Positions 13,407-25,169 of a stretch of 64,000 bases of DNA are shown here, piece by piece (positions within the stretch are counted from its first letter, which is position 1; every line of letters starts with the position of its first letter). Source of the DNA: an uncultured Solirubrobacteraceae bacterium (GTDB lineage: Bacteria > Actinomycetota > Thermoleophilia > Solirubrobacterales > Solirubrobacteraceae); the NCBI GenBank assembly GCA_964588985.1, contig CAZPQW010000018.1, positions 8,442-72,441 of the forward strand, read 5' to 3'. The translations under genes were made by a program, and so were the position numbers. The notes below the pieces were generated by a model. It searched no databases and was not told where the DNA came from. It saw only the letters and a program-made list of their open reading frames with translations.

Positions 13407-15023
13407 CTACTCCCACTCGATCGTGCCGGGCGGCTTCGACGTGATGTCGAGAACCACCCGGTTGACCTCGCGCAGCTCGTTGATCATGCGCGAGGCGATC
13501 GTCTCGAGCAGGTCGTACGGGAGTCTCGCCCAGTCGGCTGTCATGGCGTCGTCGCTGGTGACCGCGCGCACGACGACCACGTAGCCGTACGTGCGCTCGT
13601 CGCCCTGCACGCCGACGGTGCGCACGTCGGGGAGCACGCAGAAGGACTGCCACAGCTCGCGGTAGAGCCCCGCCTTGCGGATCTCCTCCTGGAGGATGTG
13701 GTCGGCCTCGCGCAGCACGTCGAGGCGCTCCTTGGTCGCTTCGCCGCCGACGACGCGGATCGCGAGGCCCGGCCCGGGGAAGGGCTGGCGCCAGACGAGC
13801 CGTTCGGGCAGACCCAGCTCGGCCCCGACGGCGCGCACCTCGTCCTTGAACAGGGCGCGAAGCGGCTCGACGAGCTCGAACTGGAGGTCGTCGGGCAGGC
13901 CGCCGACGTTGTGGTGGGACTTGATCGTCGCCGCGCCGGTGCCGCCGCCGGACTCGATCACGTCGGAGTAGAGCGTGCCCTGGACGAGGAACGCGGCGCT
14001 GTCCCCGCCGTCGGCGCCGACGAGCTTCTCGGCCTCCTCCTCGAACACGCGGATGAACTCCGCGCCGATCGCTTTGCGCTTCGCCTCGGGCTCGGTGACG
14101 CCCTTGAGCTTGTCGAGGAAGCGCGTCTCGGCGTCGACCGCGACGAGCGGCACCTTGAACGTGTCGCGGAAGGTCTTGACGACCTGTTCTCCCTCGTCCT
14201 TGCGCATCAGGCCGTGGTCGACGAACACGCACGTGAGCTGCTCTCCGACGGCGCGGTGCACGAGCAGCGCGGCCACCGAGGAGTCGACGCCGCCGGAGAG
14301 CCCGCAGATGACGTTGCCGTCCCCCACCTGTTCGCGGATGCGGCGGATCTGTTCCTCGACGATCGACGCCGCCGACCACGTCGGCTCGCAGCCGCACACC
14401 TCGGTGAGGAAGCGCGTGAGGATCTCCTGCCCGTAGGGGGTGTGGACGACCTCGGGGTGGAACTGAATGCCGTAGATCGAGCGCTCGGTGTCCTCCACCG
14501 CGGCGACGGGCGAGCTGGTGGAGGAGGCGAGCGCGGTGAAGCCGGGGGGCGCCTCGTAGACGGTGTCGCGGTGGGACATCCAGCAGGTCTGCTCGCGCGG
14601 CATGCCCTTGAGCAGCGTGCCCGTGTCGGACACGTGCAGGTCGGAGCGCCCGAACTCCCCCACCTCCGCCTGCTCGACGCGCCCGCCGAGCGAGTGGACG
14701 AGCAGCTGCATGCCGTAGCAGATGCCCATCACCGGGACGCCCAGCTCGAGCAGGCCGAGATCGAGCGGCGGCGCGCCGTCGGCGTACACCGATGCGGGGC
14801 CGCCGGAGAGGATGATCCCGCGCGGTTTGCGCCGAGCGACCTCCTCCAGCGGGACGTGGTGCGGCAGCAGCTCGCTGAACACGCCGCAGTCGCGGACCCT
14901 GCGGGCGATCAGCTGCGAGTACTGACCGCCGTAGTCGAGGACGATTATCTCTTCGGTTGCCGCGGGCGCGATGCTCGGTGGCTCGGCGACCGCCTCAGAC
15001 GCCGTGACAGCCGAACTAGTCAT
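13407..15023 (-). CDS. guaA: GMP synthase (glutamine-hydrolysing)
   Basis: [37 protein letters not shown]. Confidence 0.98.
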
Positions 15024-16209
15024 TGACGAGCTGTGCGACCTTCCCGTTCGTGGCGCCCATGCCGACGCCCTGGTCGCGCTGCAGCGCCTTGCCCTCGGTC
15101 TGCAGGGCGGGCGCGACGACTACCTCGGCGCGGTTGAACTCGGCGAGGTCCTTGTGTCCGCAGGTGGCCATCGAGGTGCGCAGGCCGCCGAACAGGTTGA
15201 ACGTGCCGTCGTTCTCGCGCGCGGGACCGGTGAGGATCTCCTCGAGCGTGCCGTTCTGCGTGGTCGCGACGCGTGCGCCGCGCGGGAGCGTGGGATGGAA
15301 CGTGGCCATGCCCCAGTGGAAGCCCCGTCCGGGGGCCTCGTAGGCGCGCGCGAGCGGGGAGCCGATCATCACTGCGTCGGCGCCGAGCGCGATCGCCTTG
15401 GAGACGTCGCCGCCGTTGCGCATGCCGCCGTCGGCGATCACCTGGCTGTACTCGCCGGTCTCGAGCATGTGCGTCGAGCGGGCGTGGGCCACGTCGGCGA
15501 TCGCTGTCGCCTGCGGCACTCCGATCCCGAGCACTCCGCGCGTGGTGCACGCCGCGCCGGGGCCGACCCCGACGAGCACGCCGGCGGCGCCGGTGCGCAT
15601 CAGGTGCAGACCCGTGTGGTAGGACGCGCAGCCGCCGACGACGACGGGCACGTCGAGCGACGGGATGAACTCCTTCAGGTTGAGCGGCTCGGAGACGGTC
15701 GAGACGTGTTCGCCGGAGACGACGGTGCCCTGGATGACGAGCACGTCGAGGCCCGCCTCCAGCGCGATCTCGTGATAGGCGAGCACGCGCTGCGGCGTGA
15801 GCGACGCGGCGACGACGACCTTCTGTTCCTTGATCTCGCGGATGCGCTGGGCGATCAGCTCGGGCTTGACGGGCTCGGCGTAGATCTCCTGCATCTCGCG
15901 CGTGGCGAGGTCCTTGGGCAGGTGGGAGATGCGCTCGAGCTGCTCCTCGGCGTCCTCGTAGCGGGTGAAGATCCCCTCGAGGTTGAGCACCGCGAGGCCG
16001 CCCAGCCGCCCGACGATGCCGGCGGTCTCGGGGGATACGACGCCGTCCATCGCGGAGGCGAGCATCGGCAGGTCGAACTGGTAGGGCCCGAGCTTCCAGG
16101 AGATGTCGATGTCGTCGGGGTCGCGCGTGCGCCGGGAAGGAACTATCGCGATGTCGTCGAACCCGTATGCACGGCGAGCTTTCTTGCCGCGGCCGATTTC
16201 TATCTCCAT
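15016..16209 (-). CDS. GuaB3-family IMP dehydrogenase-related protein
   Basis: [39 protein letters not shown]; no CBS domains. Confidence 0.92.
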
Positions 16210-16374: not shown

Positions 16375-18663
16375 ATGGGCGACGCCGCGAGCACGCGCTA
16401 TCAACCGCATGAGATCGAGGCCCGCCGCCAGGCCGCGTGGCGCGAGCGCGACGCGTTCAGGACGCCGCCGCTGAGCGAGGAGCAGCCGCACCTCTACATC
16501 AAGCCCTCGGCGCCGTTCACGTCGGGCAACGTGCACATCGGGCACGTGCGCAGCTACTCGATCGGAGACGCGTACGCGCGTTTTCGCCGCGCGCGCGGCG
16601 AGGCGGTGCTGTTCGCGTTCGGCTTCGACGCGTTCGGCCTGCCGGCGGAGCTCGGCGCGATCGCCGGCGGGGAGTCCCCCAGCGAGTGGGTCAACCGCTG
16701 CGCGGAGCACATGACGGGACAGCTGGACAGGCTGGGCTTCTCGTTCGACTGGGAGCGCTCGTTCCTGAGCTCCGACGCGAACATGTACCGCTGGTCGCAG
16801 TGGCTGTTCCTGGTGCTGCTGGAGGCGGGCCTGATCTACCACGGCAGCGGCAACGTCGACTGGTGCGACAACTGCGAAACGACTTTGGCGTCGATCCAGG
16901 TCGAGGCGGGCGGCACGTGCTGGCGCTGTCATGGACCGGTCAGGTTGATCGAGCTGCCGCAGTGGTATCTGCGCATTAGCGCCTATCTGCAGGAGAACGA
17001 TGCTCGTTTGCAAGAGCGCGCGGACAGCGGGATCTGGGACGAGGTGTCGCTGGCGTCCCAGCAGATCGTGTTGGGACGGGTCGACGGCGTGGAGGTGGAG
17101 ATGCGCGCCACCGACTCCACGGGCGACGTGCTGACGGTGTTCACGCCCTACGGCGACGCGGTGTCGGAGGCGCGCTTCGTGCTGCTCTCCGCGCGCCATC
17201 CCGACGTCGAGAGCTGGGCATCGGACCCGGCGGTGCTCGAGCAGCTGGAGCAGCTGCGCGCGGGCGGCTGGGAGCGCAGCGCGCGCGAGGCGGAGACGAT
17301 CCCGGTGATCGACACCGGGCGTACGGTCGCGGGTCCGGACGGCGTGGCGCTGCCGGTGCTGGTCTCGCCTGTAGTGGACTCGCGCTTCGGGCCGACGGCG
17401 GTGCTGGGCGTGCCCTCGCGCGACCGTACCGACGAGGTGCTCGCGGGGCGGCTGGGGATCGAGGTGCCGGAGGACGAGGCTGACGAGGCTGCGCGGGGCG
17501 CCGGAGCGAGCGATGGCGTCGGCCCCTCCCCCACGGCCCAAGCCGCGGTGCGCTACCGCGCGTTCGACTTTGTGGTCTCGCGCCAGCGCTCGTGGGGCAC
17601 GCCGATCCCGATCGTGTACTGCGACTCGTGCGGCACGGTGCCGGTGCCGCGCGATCAGCTGCCGGTGCTGCTGCCGCTGGACATCCACCCGACGGGGACT
17701 GGCAACCCGCTGGCGGAGATGGAGGAGTTCGTGAACACGACGTGCCCGACGTGCGGCGGGCCGGCGCGACGTGAGACGGACACGCTGGACTGCCACTTCG
17801 ACGCGCTGTGGCTGTGGGTTCCCGCGTGCGTTCCGCCCGAGAATCGCGAGGACACGTTGGAGGAGATATTCGCGCTGGCGGACCTGCGCCACTGGCTGCC
17901 GTCGGAGCGCCTGGTGGCGGGCTCGGACAGCGGCAACTTCGTGTTCGACCAGCGGACGGTGACGAAGGCGCTGCGCGACATCGGCCCGCTGTCGTTCCTC
18001 GAGGATGGCGAGCCGTTCGCGGGTTGCCTGTTCCACGAGATGGTGATCAGCGAGGGGCGCAAGATGAGCAAGCACCTCGGCAACGTGGTCGACCCGGACG
18101 AGCTGATCGCGCGCTACGGCGCGGACACGGTGCGTCTGGCCGTTCTCTACGCCGCGCGCCCCCAGCGGTCGTTGAACTGGAGCGACTCGGCGGTGCTGCG
18201 CTGCCACAGGTTCCTGACGCAGGTGTGGGAGTACTCGCACGCGCGGATCGCGCGCGCCGCCGCCGTGGACCCCGAGGTCGCCGCGGCGGATACGGCCGTG
18301 GGCGAGGACGGCGAGCCGGTGAGAGACAACACGGAGCACTTCAGGGCGCAGCTGTCGAAGTGGTGCGCGAACGGCGTGGAGAAGATCACCGAGGACATGG
18401 AGGCGCTGGAGATGCACAGCGCGGTGCGCAACGTGATGCGCCTGTTCGACCGCATCAAGGACTTCGAGAAGCGAGTGCTCGCAAGACAGGACGAGCTGAG
18501 CCGCGCGAACCTCGACGCGCTGCTCGACGCGCTCGGCGTGCTCGCCCAAACCCTCGGCCCGTTCGCCCCGCACATGGCCGAGGAGCTGTGGATGACACTG
18601 GGAAACACGGAGCACAACACACAGACGCCGTGGCCAGGCGTATCGTCTCAGGTACTCGCATGA
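16375..18663 (+). CDS. leucyl-tRNA synthetase paralog (class Ia), amino-acid pocket remodelled, C-terminal domain absent
   Basis: HIGH, FDAFGLPAE, SRQRSWGTPIP, KMSKHLGN, GADTVRL, PFAPHMAEELW. Confidence 0.9.
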   Translation: MGDAASTRYQPHEIEARRQAAWRERDAFRTPPLSEEQPHLYIKPSAPFTSGNVHIGHVRSYSIGDAYARFRRARGEAVLFAFGFDAFGLPAELGAIAGGESPSEWVNRCAEHMTGQLDRLGFSFDWERSFLSSDANMYRWSQWLFLVLLEAGLIYHGSGNVDWCDNCETTLASIQVEAGGTCWRCHGPVRLIELPQWYLRISAYLQENDARLQERADSGIWDEVSLASQQIVLGRVDGVEVEMRATDSTGDVLTVFTPYGDAVSEARFVLLSARHPDVESWASDPAVLEQLEQLRAGGWERSAREAETIPVIDTGRTVAGPDGVALPVLVSPVVDSRFGPTAVLGVPSRDRTDEVLAGRLGIEVPEDEADEAARGAGASDGVGPSPTAQAAVRYRAFDFVVSRQRSWGTPIPIVYCDSCGTVPVPRDQLPVLLPLDIHPTGTGNPLAEMEEFVNTTCPTCGGPARRETDTLDCHFDALWLWVPACVPPENREDTLEEIFALADLRHWLPSERLVAGSDSGNFVFDQRTVTKALRDIGPLSFLEDGEPFAGCLFHEMVISEGRKMSKHLGNVVDPDELIARYGADTVRLAVLYAARPQRSLNWSDSAVLRCHRFLTQVWEYSHARIARAAAVDPEVAAADTAVGEDGEPVRDNTEHFRAQLSKWCANGVEKITEDMEALEMHSAVRNVMRLFDRIKDFEKRVLARQDELSRANLDALLDALGVLAQTLGPFAPHMAEELWMTLGNTEHNTQTPWPGVSSQVLA

Positions 18664-19988
18664 GTCTTCAGACCGCAAAGAGCCCCTCGAAGCAGCGGAC
18701 GCGCTCGTGCGCGACCGGCCTGGCGTGCCACCGCTGCGACAACCACTACGCCCTCGAGGACACGGTGTTCTCGTGCCCGGACTGCGGCAAGGGCCTCGAC
18801 GTGGTCTACGACTACGAGCTGGCGGCGAGCCACTTCAGGGACTTCCCAAGCTCGGAACGCCCGCAGAACATCTGGCACTTCGAGGAGCTGCTGCCGATCG
18901 TGGACGCGGCGGCACAGGCGCGCGTGGGTCAGTTCTCCGGCTACACGCCGCTGATCCGCGCGGATCGGCTGGGCGCGGAGCTTGGGCTGAACAACCTGTA
19001 CCTGAAGGACGACTCGAGCAACCGCCCGAGCCTCTCCTACAAGGACCGCGTGGTGTCGATGTCGATTGCGCGCCTGTTGGAGCGCGGCAAGACGGAGATC
19101 GGCTGCGTGTCGACCGGCAACGTGGGCACCGCGGTGGCGTCGCTCGCGGCGAAGGCGGGCGTGGACGCGTACGTGTTCTACCCCAACGCGCTGGAGGACA
19201 TGAAGGCGCGGGCGTGCATGGCGCTCGGCGCGAAGGTGTGCCAGGTGGAGGGCAACTACGACGAAGCGAACCGCCGCTGCCGCGAAATCGCGGAAGCGAC
19301 GGGCATGGACTTCGCGAACATCACGCTGCGCCCGTTCTACGCGGAGGGCGCGAAGACAGCGGCGTTCGAGATCGTGGAGCAGCTCGGCTGGAACTCGCCA
19401 GACCACATCATCACGGCGGCCGCCGGCGGCACGCTTTCGTCGCGCCTACACAAGGGCCTCGACGAGCTGCAGCTGCTGGGCCTGTCGGAGACGGACGGCA
19501 CGCGCATCCACATCGCCCAGCCGAGCGGCTGCAACCCGATCGCGACGGCGATCCTGGCCGAGGAGGCGGAGGTCCACCCGGTGACGCCGGAGACGGCGGC
19601 GCACTCGCTGGCGATCGGCGCCCCCGGCGACGGCTACTTGGTGATCGACGCGGTGCGCAAACGCGGCGGCACGGGCGGGTTCGCGAGCGACCCGGAGATC
19701 TTCGCGGGCATCGACCTGCTGGCGGCGACCGAGGGTCTGTTGACGGAGCCCGCGGGCGGCACGACGATCGCGGTGCTTGAGAAGCTCGCGGCGGTCGGTC
19801 GCTTCGCCCCCGACGACACGGTGGTGGCGATCATCACGGGCAACGGGCTGAAGACGCTGTACGACCACCCGCAGAAGCCGTGGCCGGCGAAGGTGGACTG
19901 CGAGCTGGACGCGATGATGGCGGCGCTCGAGGAGCTCAAGAGCGGCGGCTCGCTGATCGACAGCGCTCGCGAGCAACTGCACCCGTAG
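18660..19988 (+). CDS. threonine-synthase-like fold-type II PLP enzyme
   Basis: ATGA overlap with the LeuRS-paralog stop; CHRC..CPDC zinc ribbon, SYKDR, STGN, YAEGAKT, TEPAGG, ITGNGLK. Confidence 0.9.
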   Translation: MSLQTAKSPSKQRTRSCATGLACHRCDNHYALEDTVFSCPDCGKGLDVVYDYELAASHFRDFPSSERPQNIWHFEELLPIVDAAAQARVGQFSGYTPLIRADRLGAELGLNNLYLKDDSSNRPSLSYKDRVVSMSIARLLERGKTEIGCVSTGNVGTAVASLAAKAGVDAYVFYPNALEDMKARACMALGAKVCQVEGNYDEANRRCREIAEATGMDFANITLRPFYAEGAKTAAFEIVEQLGWNSPDHIITAAAGGTLSSRLHKGLDELQLLGLSETDGTRIHIAQPSGCNPIATAILAEEAEVHPVTPETAAHSLAIGAPGDGYLVIDAVRKRGGTGGFASDPEIFAGIDLLAATEGLLTEPAGGTTIAVLEKLAAVGRFAPDDTVVAIITGNGLKTLYDHPQKPWPAKVDCELDAMMAALEELKSGGSLIDSAREQLHP

Positions 19989-20008
19989 GGAACGGCCGGA
20001 GGCTCGAG

Positions 20009-21223
20009 CTGCAGGGGGCACGGCAATCGTGGCGGGCGGTCGGGGCGTATGCGCTCGCGGCGGCCGCGAGCCAGATGCTGTGGCTGACGTTCGCTCCGAT
20101 CACGACCGCGAGCGCGCACCACTTCCACGTCTCCGAAGCGACCGTGGGGTGGCTGTCGGAGGTGTTCCCGCTGGTGTACGTGCTGCTGGCGATCCCCGCG
20201 GGGATGGCGCTCGACCGCTGGTTCCGTCCGGCGTTGATCGCGGGCGCGACGCTGACGGCGCTCGGCGGGCTGGTGCGCCTCGGTGGGGATGGGTTCGGCG
20301 TGGCGTTGGCGGGCCAGGTGCTCGTGGCGGTGGGCCAGCCATTCGTGCTGAACGCGATCACGAAGCTCGCGGGCGAGTACCTGCCGGCGGAGAAACGCCC
20401 GGAGGGGATCTCCTACGGCTCGGCGGGCATCTTCGGCGGGATGCTCCTCGGGCTCGGGCTGGGTCCCGTGTTGGGCAGCTCCGGCAACCTGCACACGCTG
20501 CTGTTGGTCAACGCCGTCTTCGCGAGCGTGGCGCTGGTGGCGCTCGCCGCGGCTCTGCGCGCGCCTGGGATCGGCGGCGAGCACGAGGACACGCTGGAGC
20601 CGAGCGGCCTGCGTGCGGTGTGGAACGACCGCCTGATCCGCAACGTCGCGGGCGTGTCGTTCCTCGGCTTCGGCGTGTTCGTGGCGGTGACGACGTGGCT
20701 TCAGGCGCTGCTCAGCCACTCGGGCGTGTCCTCCGACACCGCCGGCGGGCTGCTCGTGGGCATGGTCGTGGTGGGGATCGTAGGCTCGGCGGTGGTGCCG
20801 GCGGCGGTCGCGAGACGCGGACAGACCTTTGGGCTGATGCGCGTCTCGGCGCTCGGCGCGTCGTTCGCGTGCCTGATGCTCGCGACCCTGGACTGGCTCC
20901 CCGGCTTCGCGGTGGCGGTGGCGCTGATCGGCTTCCTGCTGATCACGAGCCTGCCGGTGATGCTCGAGCTGACCGAGCGGCGGGCGGGCGTGAACGGCGG
21001 CAGCGCGACGGCGCTGATGTGGATGGCCGGCCAGGGCGGCGGCATCGTGATCGCGGTGATCGTGCAGGTGGTGGTCCACCACCCCACCGTCGCGTTCGTG
21101 CTGATGGCGGTGGCCGCGGCGGGCGCGCTGCCTTTGATCGACGCGGCGTCGCGGGTTGCGGAGGCTGAGGATCTGGGCTTGGCGCAGGCCGATGAGGCGA
21201 TCACGCTACGCGTCGGCGCCTAG
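20009..21223 (+). CDS. MFS transporter
   Basis: About 12 hydrophobic helices; motif-A-like GMALDRWFR. Start uncertain: in-frame CTG 20009 sits 6 nt after GGAGG. Confidence 0.85.
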   Translation: MQGARQSWRAVGAYALAAAASQMLWLTFAPITTASAHHFHVSEATVGWLSEVFPLVYVLLAIPAGMALDRWFRPALIAGATLTALGGLVRLGGDGFGVALAGQVLVAVGQPFVLNAITKLAGEYLPAEKRPEGISYGSAGIFGGMLLGLGLGPVLGSSGNLHTLLLVNAVFASVALVALAAALRAPGIGGEHEDTLEPSGLRAVWNDRLIRNVAGVSFLGFGVFVAVTTWLQALLSHSGVSSDTAGGLLVGMVVVGIVGSAVVPAAVARRGQTFGLMRVSALGASFACLMLATLDWLPGFAVAVALIGFLLITSLPVMLELTERRAGVNGGSATALMWMAGQGGGIVIAVIVQVVVHHPTVAFVLMAVAAAGALPLIDAASRVAEAEDLGLAQADEAITLRVGA

Positions 21224-21606
21224 CGACGCGCAACAGAAGAGAGCGCGAGTGCCGTCGGCATTTGCGGTTTTTACACCGCGGCCGGTTTGGCGGTCGTTCC
21301 TCAACGGAACACTCACGCTCTCTGGGGCGATCATGATCGACCTGGCTGCCGAGGTCATCGCGGCAAACTACCCGCACGCGATGAGGGTTCGGCCGCAGCA
21401 GTGGCGTCAACGCAGCGGCCAAGGCCTGACGCCGGATCGACCGCTGTGCATCACCCTTCCAGCCCTGATGCTGGCACCAGGCGCGCGGTGAGGTCGCAGC
21501 GGCGGCTGGAGCGCTGGGTGCACGGGGCAGCGACGCCGATCGCCAGGCGAGTGGTGAACGCCTTCTCTACATCGGGCCGGAAACCCAAGAACACCGTGGC
21601 GCATCG

Positions 21607-23837: not shown

Positions 23838-23890
23838 ATAGAAAAACCCCGCCGGAGCGGGGCTTTTCCTTAGCGGGTCGATAAGCCGGA
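23838..23890 (-). repeat. direct repeat copy 2 (attL-like), within and after the intact rnpB
   Basis: Matches copy 1. Confidence 0.95.
23840..23868 (-). terminator. rnpB intrinsic terminator
   Basis: AAAAGCCCCGC-UCCG-GCGGGG-UUUUUCU on the minus strand. Confidence 0.85.
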
Positions 23891-24197
23891 TCCTGTCGTT
23901 GAGCAGCCATCCATCTGAGCGGCCTACCTGGACCTCGGCGGGCAGCCTGCAAACGGTCCCGTTTGGCCTTGCATCGAGTGGGGTTTGCCCAGCCGCCGCG
24001 TCACCGCGACGCTGGTGCGCTCTTACCGCACCATTTCACCCTTGCCGGCCCGCCGTTCACGTGGGACGGCGGACGTAGGCGGTTTGTTTCTGTGGCACTT
24101 TCCCGCGGGTTTCCCCGGGTCGATACCTCGACCACCCTGCCCTGTGATGTCCGGACTTTCCTCGAAGGCTTGCGCCTCCGCGGCTGCCTGACCTGCA
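23872..24197 (-). ncRNA. rnpB: RNase P RNA (bacterial type A)
   Basis: GAGGAAAGTCCGG, AGTGCCACAGAAA, GGTGAAATGGTGCGGTAAGAGCGCACC, GGCAAACCCC..GCAAG, ACAGGATCCGGCTTA; P1 GCAGGUC/GACCCGC. Confidence 0.97.
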
Positions 24198-24277
24198 CGG
24201 TCAACGTAGCGCGCGAGAGGCGCTCTGTGAAGGGGTGGGTTCGCACGCCCGACCGCGGGCAGCGAGGCGGCTGGAGC

Positions 24278-24955: not shown

Positions 24956-25046
24956 CACTGTAGCGACGGTCGTGGACGGATGCAACATCTGGCACCCGCA
25001 GCCCACCCGCTGCCAGCCTCATCCCGAGGCTATACTCGCCCACTCT

Positions 25047-25132
<86 letters not shown>

Positions 25133-25169
25133 TTCGCTCCGTGTACCACCTGCTTGGTACACTGCGTAG

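Follow-up and report, generated by a model that had tools for sequence, protein, structure and literature searches.

The DNA analysed here (the window) is a stretch of 64,000 nucleotides (nt) from an uncultured Solirubrobacteraceae bacterium (assembly GCA_964588985.1, contig CAZPQW010000018.1, positions 8,442 to 72,441 of the forward strand). It carries a gene for a divergent paralogue of bacterial leucyl-tRNA synthetase (LeuRS), hereafter the paralogue, which overlaps the gene of a threonine synthase-like protein (the ThrC paralogue) and lies divergently next to GuaB3 and GuaA genes (Table 1). A preliminary description of this DNA had reported an intact open reading frame (ORF) of 762 amino acids (aa) and proposed that it had changed its substrate rather than decayed. 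The ORF is indeed intact, and the comparative evidence gathered here supports, at the level of sequence, the reading that the gene is not decaying and has acquired a new specificity. Pfam finds the class I core tRNA-synt_1 (PF00133, E = 1.2e-43), the LeuRS editing domain PF13603 and Anticodon_1 in the protein and, in the same scan, no DNA-binding or signalling domain. The paralogue thus has the class I catalytic fold (PF00133/PF09334), with a Rossmann core, HIGH and KMSKH. The best NCBIfam model is leuS_bact (TIGR00396) at 451 bits, below the curated cut-off of 548.4, so that the protein falls outside that family; MshC is a weak NCBIfam match.

An AlphaFold2 model built from a 57-row family alignment has a mean predicted local distance difference test (pLDDT) score of 90.4 and a predicted template modelling score (pTM) of 0.90. 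Its best Foldseek matches in the PDB are bacterial LeuRSs, with a TM score of 0.81 (N. gonorrhoeae LeuRS) and 29-30% identity. Shared with the bacterial enzymes (for example N. gonorrhoeae 7NUA and 6Q89, T. thermophilus 1H3N and E. coli 4AQ7) are the Rossmann core with HIGH and KMSK, the aspartate that binds the alpha-amino group, two zinc modules, CP1 at the bacterial insertion site and a helical anticodon-binding domain. The paralogue differs from them in its replaced pocket motifs, the KMSKH and TPYGDA variants, the deleted end of CP1, the lack of the elbow domain and the family score below cut-off.

Motifs were read from a residue-level HMMER alignment to N. gonorrhoeae LeuRS (7nua) and from alignments with canonical LeuRSs of the same genus. 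They bear out the preliminary description in its list of retained elements (HIGH, KMSKH, the Asp of FDAFGLPAE and the zinc knuckles), to which the ribose-binding acid, present as Asp, can be added. All three leucine-pocket motifs, (M/L)(F/L)PYPSG, DTFxxSSWY and GGxEHAxxHLLY, are replaced. Opposite the canonical IGGxEHAxLHLLY, residues 514-525 read VAGSDSGN-FVFD, with one residue deleted and GGxEH turned into GxD, and both pocket histidines are gone, as had been claimed. The chain likewise ends, as described, eight residues past WP: residue 759 aligns to residue 811 of the 877-aa N. gonorrhoeae LeuRS, and the C-terminal tRNA-elbow domain (VNGK motif; about 66 residues in LeuRS) is absent. The large leucine-specific insertion before KMSK is missing from the paralogue and from the canonical LeuRS of the lineage alike; its absence is therefore a trait of the lineage and not special to the paralogue. 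Net charge and isoelectric point do not separate the paralogues from canonical LeuRSs.

Table 1. Features of the window in and around the paralogue gene; residue numbers of the encoded protein are given in brackets.
Feature	Position	Strand	Remarks
GuaA (GMP synthase) and GuaB3-family IMP-dehydrogenase-related protein	13407-16209	-	divergent, upstream of the paralogue
LeuRS-derived paralogue (P0001)	16375..18663	+	762-aa ORF, intact in the window
SAPFTSG (45-51; canonical MFPYPSG), then HIGH (54-57)	16507..16545	+	pocket motif 1 rewritten, ATP motif kept
D85, alpha-amino-binding Asp of FDAFGLPAE	16627..16629	+	invariant in alignments A1 and A2
Zn knuckle 1, C164/C167/C182/C185	16864..16929	+	invariant columns in A1 and A2
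CP1 domain (about 226-365)	17050..17469	+	PF13603 match at 233-363; confidently folded in the model
CP1 motif TPYGDA (257-262; canonical TTRPDT)	17143-17160	+	alignment
CP1 motif GPTAVLGVPSRDRTD (339-353)	17389-17433	+	alignment
Acidic Ala-rich linker (366-392), in place of the last part of CP1	17470..17550	+	pLDDT <50 at 368-384; dN/dS 0.74
Zn knuckle 2, C416/C419/C457/C460	17620..17754	+	invariant columns in A1 and A2
DCHFDALWL (472-480) in place of DTFVDSSWY	17788..17814	+	alignment
LVAGSDSGNFVFD (513-525) in place of YIGGxEHAxLHLLY	17911..17949	+	both pocket His gone
KMSKH (563-567; canonical KMSKS)	18061..18075	+	alignment
ATGA overlap, paralogue stop and ThrC paralogue start	18660..18663	+	read from the sequence
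ThrC paralogue, 442 aa	18660..19988	+	N-terminal Cys4 ribbon, PALP domain; TIGR00260 208 bits, cut-off 167
RNase P RNA, class A	23866-24199	-	215.8 bits
tRNA-Leu(GAG)	25046-25133	+	6.4 kb downstream of the paralogue

Besides the paralogue, the genome that contains the window has a canonical leuS, whose two pieces lie at the ends of different contigs (C17:72958-73770, the N-terminal piece, and C10:1-1725). The C10 piece, the C-terminal two thirds, alone scores 599.9 bits against TIGR00396. In the legible part of this gene and in the full-length LeuRSs of two same-genus genomes and one genome of another family of the order (f3), the lineage's canonical LeuRS shows the motifs MLPYPSG, FTTRPDT, GTGAIMAVPAHDxRD, DTFVDSSWYF, IGGVEHAILHLMYARF, KMSKS and VCQVNGK, the copies finishing ...VCQVNGKLRD.... 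The housekeeping enzyme of the lineage thus has the standard motifs, and the substitutions are peculiar to the extra gene. Every one of 24 same-genus genomes has both a paralogue match above 50% identity and a canonical match at 35-41%. Elsewhere in the order the paralogue was found in two of four f3 genomes (G026, 56%; G031, 58%) and in none of the four f2, four f4, three f5 and one f6 genomes searched. When 301 genomes spread evenly over the class were searched, matches above 50% identity came from four alone: G000 (the genome of the window), G235, G026 and G031.

Homologues define a family of short LeuRS-like proteins. In a word-indexed search each of the best 120 clusters listed had a length of 745-796 aa and an identity of 75% or more to the window protein; their names are `leucyl-tRNA synthetase' (JGI) and `class I tRNA ligase family protein [Solirubrobacteraceae bacterium]' (NCBI). 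HMMER over representatives at 50% identity returned many relatives of 650-780 aa at 37-62% identity before the canonical LeuRSs appeared at about 35-38%. In a FastTree phylogeny 42 of the 129 rows, all short proteins, form one clade with a support of 100. With IQ-TREE (LG+C20, 52 rows, root not inferred) one branch sets apart the 26 family rows (SH-aLRT 98) and another the 16 canonical bacterial LeuRS rows (SH-aLRT 95), with the LeuRSs of the host and of other Solirubrobacterales nested among the latter. Since the host LeuRS groups with the canonical rows and the family stands apart, the family is old and separate and is no recent copy of leuS. It is found mainly in soil Solirubrobacterales and is common there. 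The clusters obtained from the ESM Atlas, mostly of Actinomycetota, all bear the name `class I tRNA ligase family protein' and give no functional lead. A scan of reference contigs (one genome per GTDB species; A1, generic patterns) returned mostly canonical LeuRSs and, from the family, L027-L029 only.

The family alignment has 41 rows, 23 of which keep HxGH and KMSK (`active-looking'), the other 18 having lost both. All 23 active-looking rows keep P47, F48, G51, H54, H57 and D85, the residues R403, R405 and W407 of the SRQRxWG strand, D476, G516 and D518, together with K563, S565 and K566 of the KMSK region. Nearly as constant are T49 (21/23), C473 (20/23), H474 (21/23), H567 of KMSKH (20/23) and an aromatic residue at 522 (22/23), and position 519 is small in at least 16 of the 23 (the top four residues being S, G, A and T). 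The family signature is PFTSG..HxGH, (T/L)DCHxD, GxD plus an aromatic residue, KMSKH, TP(H/Y)xxA, GxTAxLGxPxxDxxD and no C-terminal domain. The window protein carries this signature and belongs to the monophyletic short family, for which there is no curated model. Because active-looking members with these substitutions share just 37-60% identity with the window protein, the substitutions are a conserved signature, the opposite of the drift that homologues without them would have indicated. Outside the family there are other short LeuRS-like lineages of about 700-790 aa (P0225, P0267, P0233, P0166, P0253, P0156, P0157, P0169, P0190, P0205, P0207 and P0229), some with DCH- or DCY-type motifs and KMSKH and without the C-terminal domain; those among them that entered the trees branch near the base of the canonical LeuRS side.

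Selection was estimated as the ratio of nonsynonymous to synonymous substitution (dN/dS; pairwise Nei-Gojobori, NG86) over 24 sequences of the window's subclade, with neighbouring genes taken from the same loci; pressure on G+C at third codon positions probably deflates dS, so that the ratios lean high. The paralogue gave 0.30 overall, 0.22 for the N-terminal and 0.18 for the second catalytic half, 0.43 for CP1, 0.44 for the anticodon-binding domain and 0.74 for the linker. The corresponding values for GuaB3, GuaA and the ThrC paralogue are 0.07, 0.15 and 0.21. A canonical leuS alongside, ratios below one that are lowest in the catalytic halves, and a shared signature together uphold the earlier view that this is not decay.

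Through the ATGA overlap the ThrC paralogue is translationally coupled to the LeuRS paralogue. It is one of three ThrC-type genes in the window's genome and is not the housekeeping one. The housekeeping gene lies on C12 in an apparent hom-thrC-thrB order (hom and thrB being named from N-terminal sequence motifs), and a second ribbon-type copy lies on C9. In the same genus the order GuaB3/paralogue-ThrC occurs in 11 of 11 loci, one of which (L016) shows just the 39 N-terminal residues of ThrC at a contig end. Family-specific patterns, run against metagenome contigs, picked out 80 loci, of which 77 have a family gene; these 77 were typed by best match (P0001-type 27, L028-type 31, G009C2-type 3, L029-type 12, G031A-type 3, P0126-like 1). 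Among P0001-, L028- and G009C2-type loci with at least 2.5 kb downstream, 42 of 43 keep the ThrC paralogue, 37 by gene calls directly downstream on the same strand and five of the six misses by tblastn. The pair occurs in two flank contexts, either GuaB3/GuaA or GtrA with a glycosyltransferase and an ABC-type gene; as the flanks differ and the pair stays the same, the two genes travel as a unit. Among 41 relatives searched, the clade of the ThrC paralogue (>65% identity to the window copy) was found only beside the synthetase-like gene, the other genomes having only a ThrC copy of 41-46% identity. A complex prediction for paralogue residues 1-555 with the full ThrC paralogue scored 0.00 against a mark of 0.32, in a run without controls.

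Near-identical DNA occurs in 21 soil or rhizosphere metagenome runs, some of them maybe the source. Small shares of it are present in another three runs, whose status as RNA libraries is either on file or a guess. Among the contigs of these runs are some from relatives (90-95% alike) that overlap portions of the paralogue and ThrC genes; one of 3,275 nt spans 18510-19970 and bridges the junction. These contigs are a weak hint of expression, since they cannot show a single transcript and may reflect DNA carry-over. An MFS transporter gene (19880-21223) was considered as a third member of the operon and discarded, as it follows ThrC in 0 of 18 P0001-type, 0 of 17 L028-type and 0 of 2 G009C2-type loci with room for it. 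A terminator-like hairpin at 21244-21266 is no better than chance (2 found, 1.8 expected), and Rfam gave no regulatory RNA near the paralogue gene. The idea that the module substitutes for a missing ThrRS was rejected, a class II ThrRS (672.8 bits) being present in the genome. The neighbouring GuaB3 is extremely conserved (93-97% identity, dN/dS 0.07).

In a sister subclade the family has another partner. G031A-type proteins are 56-58% identical to the window protein, and in five of five loci their gene lies directly 3' of a 56-aa ORF with a Cys4 ribbon and a C-terminal DWGE, which matches the LysW/ArgW carrier model with E = 3.5e-9, below its cut-off; in L112 the carrier stop and the LeuRS-like start overlap by 1 nt. 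A motif scan found no LysW-like ORF in the window or in the window's genome, which thus lies outside the LysW-cluster type. With ThrC in one subclade and a LysW cluster in its sister, the family recurs within gene sets that build amino acids. The f3 loci concerned are L107 (G031:C1:230001-249000), L108 (249001-262000), L112, L161, L195 and L206. Their order along the strand is an HMGL-like gene (isopropylmalate/homocitrate synthase family), the LysW-like carrier, the LeuRS-like gene and a gene of the XRE type with a helix-turn-helix (HTH); divergent from this strand are LysA, a RimK/LysX-like ligase, ArgC and an amino-acid kinase. Beyond these, the G031 region holds two enzymes dependent on pyridoxal phosphate (PLP) that resemble GntC/VioD, a glutamine amidotransferase and, 12 kb off, a second family member without HIGH and KMSK that looks catalytically dead. 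L029-type proteins (48-53% identical to the window protein) look active, and in L029, L110 (G009:C7) and L111 (G002:C1) their gene is divergent beside an isochorismatase-family gene, with HypE-like and HypF genes and a class III aminotransferase beyond it. The L029 gene is then followed by a class II synthetase gene of the Asp/Lys/Asn type.

Taken together, these findings lead us to favour, with moderate confidence, the reading that the paralogue is a neofunctionalized descendant of LeuRS that activates an amino acid other than leucine. The protein would still form an aminoacyl-adenylate, now from a different alpha-amino acid, in a side-chain pocket that the alignments suggest is lined by F48, T49, C473, H474, a small residue at 519 and an aromatic one at 522. 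Such a pocket gains His474 and Thr49 and loses both histidines and a tyrosine, and would thus be more polar. A non-leucine amino-acid substrate is made plausible by the ThrC and LysW gene partners. In the ThrC subclade it would most likely be made or processed by the co-translated PLP enzyme of ThrC type; it would then be threonine or a threonine- or homoserine-like amino acid formed from a phosphorylated precursor. Once activated, the amino acid would pass to an acceptor, either a tRNA 3' end, engaged without the elbow domain, or a non-tRNA nucleophile, and the CP1 pocket might serve as a second site for hydrolysis or for binding the aminoacyl ester or the acceptor. A tRNA 3' end as acceptor would fit the invariant SRQRxWG strand and zinc modules of the active-looking members; a non-tRNA acceptor would fit the lack of the C-terminal domain and the biosynthetic gene neighbourhoods.

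Several observations weigh against a neofunctionalized activating enzyme. E. coli LeuRS without its C-terminal domain cannot charge tRNA; the loss of this domain argues against ordinary charging of tRNA-Leu and does not tell what role replaced it. As many as 18 of the 41 family representatives lack HIGH and KMSK yet have the CP1 motifs, so that adenylation is not the sole function of the family and perhaps not the core one. The overall dN/dS of the paralogue exceeds those of GuaB3, GuaA and the ThrC paralogue, which makes the constraint only moderate. The partnership with ThrC also has gaps: L138 (L028-type) is the sole locus of the 43 without the ThrC paralogue, which is absent downstream in all L029-type (0/10) and G031A-type (0/3) loci with room for it and is lacking in G009, where the gene stands at a contig end. 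Finally, the ThrC paralogue may simply make threonine, since its score is that of a bona fide threonine synthase and its STGN loop is kept. This loop is the site at which fold-type II PLP enzymes bind a free carboxylate, and its retention speaks against a tRNA-bound substrate for ThrC.

The retention of CP1 gives rise to the strongest competing account. The PF13603 match (38.2 bits, cut-off 25) covers profile positions 4-135 of 185, and in the AlphaFold2 model CP1 has a pLDDT mostly >85, residues 366-388 being predicted to be disordered. The end of the domain is shortened, paralogue residues 362-388 standing opposite N. gonorrhoeae residues 364-422, and GPTAVL (339-344) replaces the canonical GTGAVM. 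Of the hallmarks of a LeuRS-type CP1, the folded domain and both editing-site aspartates are present (D350 and D353, which we take to be the equivalents of E. coli D342 and D345), and the Thr-rich TTRPDT with its specificity threonine is not. The family consensus there is TP(H/Y)x(D/E)A, and Ala occupies the position that presumably corresponds to E. coli T252. The T252A change makes the editing site of E. coli LeuRS accept leucine; the T252A structures 5OMW and 5ON2 are among the Foldseek matches listed. CP1 motifs are the best-kept part of the family members without ATP motifs, where T257 (18/18), P258 (15/18), L344 (17/18), P347 (18/18), D350 (18/18) and D353 (17/18) persist. These members (P0138, P0140, P0145, P0146, P0150, P0151, P0159, P0165, P0170, P0174, P0180, P0193, P0194, P0213, P0231 and others) are scattered over both trees and have several origins within the family. 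The preliminary description was thus right that CP1 is shortened and that the TTRPDT and GTGAVM motifs are changed, and wrong in calling the site degenerate: both aspartates are kept, the motifs are conserved family-wide and they outlast the ATP site. The CP1 pocket appears instead to have been re-specified and to have a function of its own.

On these grounds the protein could be primarily a hydrolase or binder that acts through the remodelled CP1 pocket, for example as a trans deacylase of an aminoacyl-tRNA or ester, with the synthetic site secondary or regulatory. We consider this unlikely, if the most serious of the competitors. It would explain why CP1 residues are best kept in the 18 members without HIGH and KMSK, why CP1 has repeatedly outlived the ATP site in members of separate origin that look dead, and why an alanine stands at the T252 position. 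In the window's subclade, however, the catalytic halves are held more tightly than CP1 (dN/dS 0.18-0.22 against 0.43), no adenylation residue has been lost and CP1 lacks its C-terminal part.

A narrower version of the activation hypothesis has the enzyme charge a tRNA with the amino acid that ThrC makes, be it threonine or a non-canonical one of the hydroxy or phospho type, which would amount to an extra class I specificity; in this form we find it distinctly doubtful. Such loading might serve tRNA-dependent synthesis of a metabolite or of the cell envelope, or deliberate recoding, and the same scaffold would then work with a LysW carrier in the sister subclade and act as a CP1-only protein where the ATP motifs have been lost.

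Somewhat less credible still is a non-catalytic regulator or sensor that binds an amino acid, ATP or tRNA and controls neighbouring biosynthesis genes. Amino-acid metabolism genes do adjoin the family in two subclades, a small XRE-type HTH gene lies next to it in 13 L028-type loci and in G031, and the archaea offer a precedent. According to the portion of a 2022 review drawn on here, LeuRS-I of Sulfolobaceae and LeuRS2 of Halobacteria are extra LeuRS genes whose products charge poorly or not at all and are suspected of acting outside translation; LeuRS-I binds tRNA-Leu and makes Leu-AMP and cannot charge, and in it CP1 is disrupted and the C-terminal domain is acidic and divergent (PMC9437257). 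As far as that portion goes, the paralogue resembles the archaeal proteins in being an extra copy beside a working LeuRS and departs from LeuRS-I in its rewritten leucine pocket, its retained CP1 aspartates, a C-terminal domain that is simply absent and a lineage of bacterial type. The catalytic residues are strictly conserved without exception, as is a new, defined pocket, and this points to chemistry over mere binding; the Pfam scan gave no domain suited to regulation by DNA binding or signalling.

That the gene encodes a second, divergent but genuine LeuRS, such as a stress or inhibitor-resistant isoform, we regard as very unlikely. The best family match is leuS_bact, homologues carry the LeuRS name at JGI and a tRNA-Leu(GAG) gene lies downstream, as it does within 8 kb in 9 of 27 P0001-type loci. 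The score nevertheless stays under the curated cut-off, three leucine-pocket motifs are replaced, both histidines included, the C-terminal domain is absent and the IQ-TREE analysis has the family long separate from canonical LeuRS. The tRNA neighbour is a matter of synteny only: other subclades have tRNA-Gln or tRNA-Met (as in L028-type loci) or no tRNA close by, and no tRNA gene is consistently close to the family gene across subclades. Decay of a duplicate towards a pseudogene is scarcely credible: it has in its favour a dN/dS above those of the neighbours and stop codons in the copies of three low-completeness same-genus genomes (G011, G012 and G019), and against it the intact window ORF, the 21 of 24 same-genus matches without an internal stop (two of them, G007 and G008, returned in pieces), a domain-structured dN/dS of 0.30, a signature conserved at 37-60% identity and a confidently predicted fold.

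Re-use of synthetase scaffolds is already known from MetRS-, IleRS-, CysRS-, SerRS-, LysRS- and GluRS-like proteins, and the paralogue adds a LeuRS-derived member, with unusually informative gene partners, to these repurposed paralogues. The MetRS-like domain of hydrazine synthetases is a class I scaffold with a non-tRNA acceptor, as given in the part of the source used (PMC12376268), and the IleRS-like SbzA is tabulated among re-used scaffolds in the review cited above (PMC9437257, same portion). Like the CysRS-like MshC, both are class I scaffolds re-used for biosynthesis, in or beside amino-acid-building gene sets; unlike the paralogue, none of the three is LeuRS-derived or has CP1, and the paralogue for its part lacks a cupin, GNAT or other partner domain that handles the acceptor. 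The LeuRS of Mycoplasma mobile (3ZIU) has lost a whole accessory domain, CP1, and is still folded and leucine-specific (Leu-AMS bound); the paralogue reverses this case, having kept CP1 and lost the leucine pocket and the C-terminal domain. In the review's table LeuRS-I and LeuRS2 are the sole LeuRS duplicates, and the table has no LeuRS-like protein with a non-charging function (PMC9437257, same portion). The full-text literature searched, outside which lie subscription-only papers and supplementary files, held no description of this LeuRS-like protein, and nothing relevant was found on LysW or another amino-group carrier protein together with a tRNA synthetase.

A class I pocket rebuilt around Cys-His, Thr and an aromatic residue would be a natural experiment in the change of amino-acid specificity, and a CP1 conserved after loss of the ATP site points to a CP1 activity independent of aminoacylation. 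The fixed partners, a ThrC paralogue and a LysW carrier, narrow the hunt for substrate and acceptor. With a tRNA as acceptor, the enzyme would add a new specificity to those of natural synthetases; with any other acceptor, it would be the first biosynthetic ligase derived from LeuRS.

Some RNA genes were noted in passing. The part of the window at 22-30 kb, where the RNase P RNA and tRNA-Leu(GAG) genes lie, has a G+C content of 0.62-0.67, below its surroundings. Genome G000 has on C5 (104171-104243, minus strand) a 73-nt, class-I-shaped tRNA with anticodon UAA, A73, G1-C72 and no long variable arm, besides a normal 87-nt tRNA-Leu(UAA) on C1; its closest tRNA in that genome is just 53/73 identical. 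It is conserved in 13 of 24 same-genus genomes (relatives L116-L128), where the anticodon never varies and the D and anticodon stems show compensatory changes; it may have an unusual identity or serve to recode the rare UUA/UUG codons. It was not picked up by a pattern search of G031 and G026, both of which have the paralogue, of G039 or of G014 (same genus), and the idea that it is the dedicated partner of the paralogue was dropped. A 97-nt tRNA-like gene of G000 (C27 31243-31339, minus strand) is given a four-base anticodon `ggag' (Ser/Leu?) by ARAGORN; tRNA-Glu(UUC) was otherwise not found in the window's genome, and by eye this gene may have a UUC anticodon loop with an insertion of about 24 nt.

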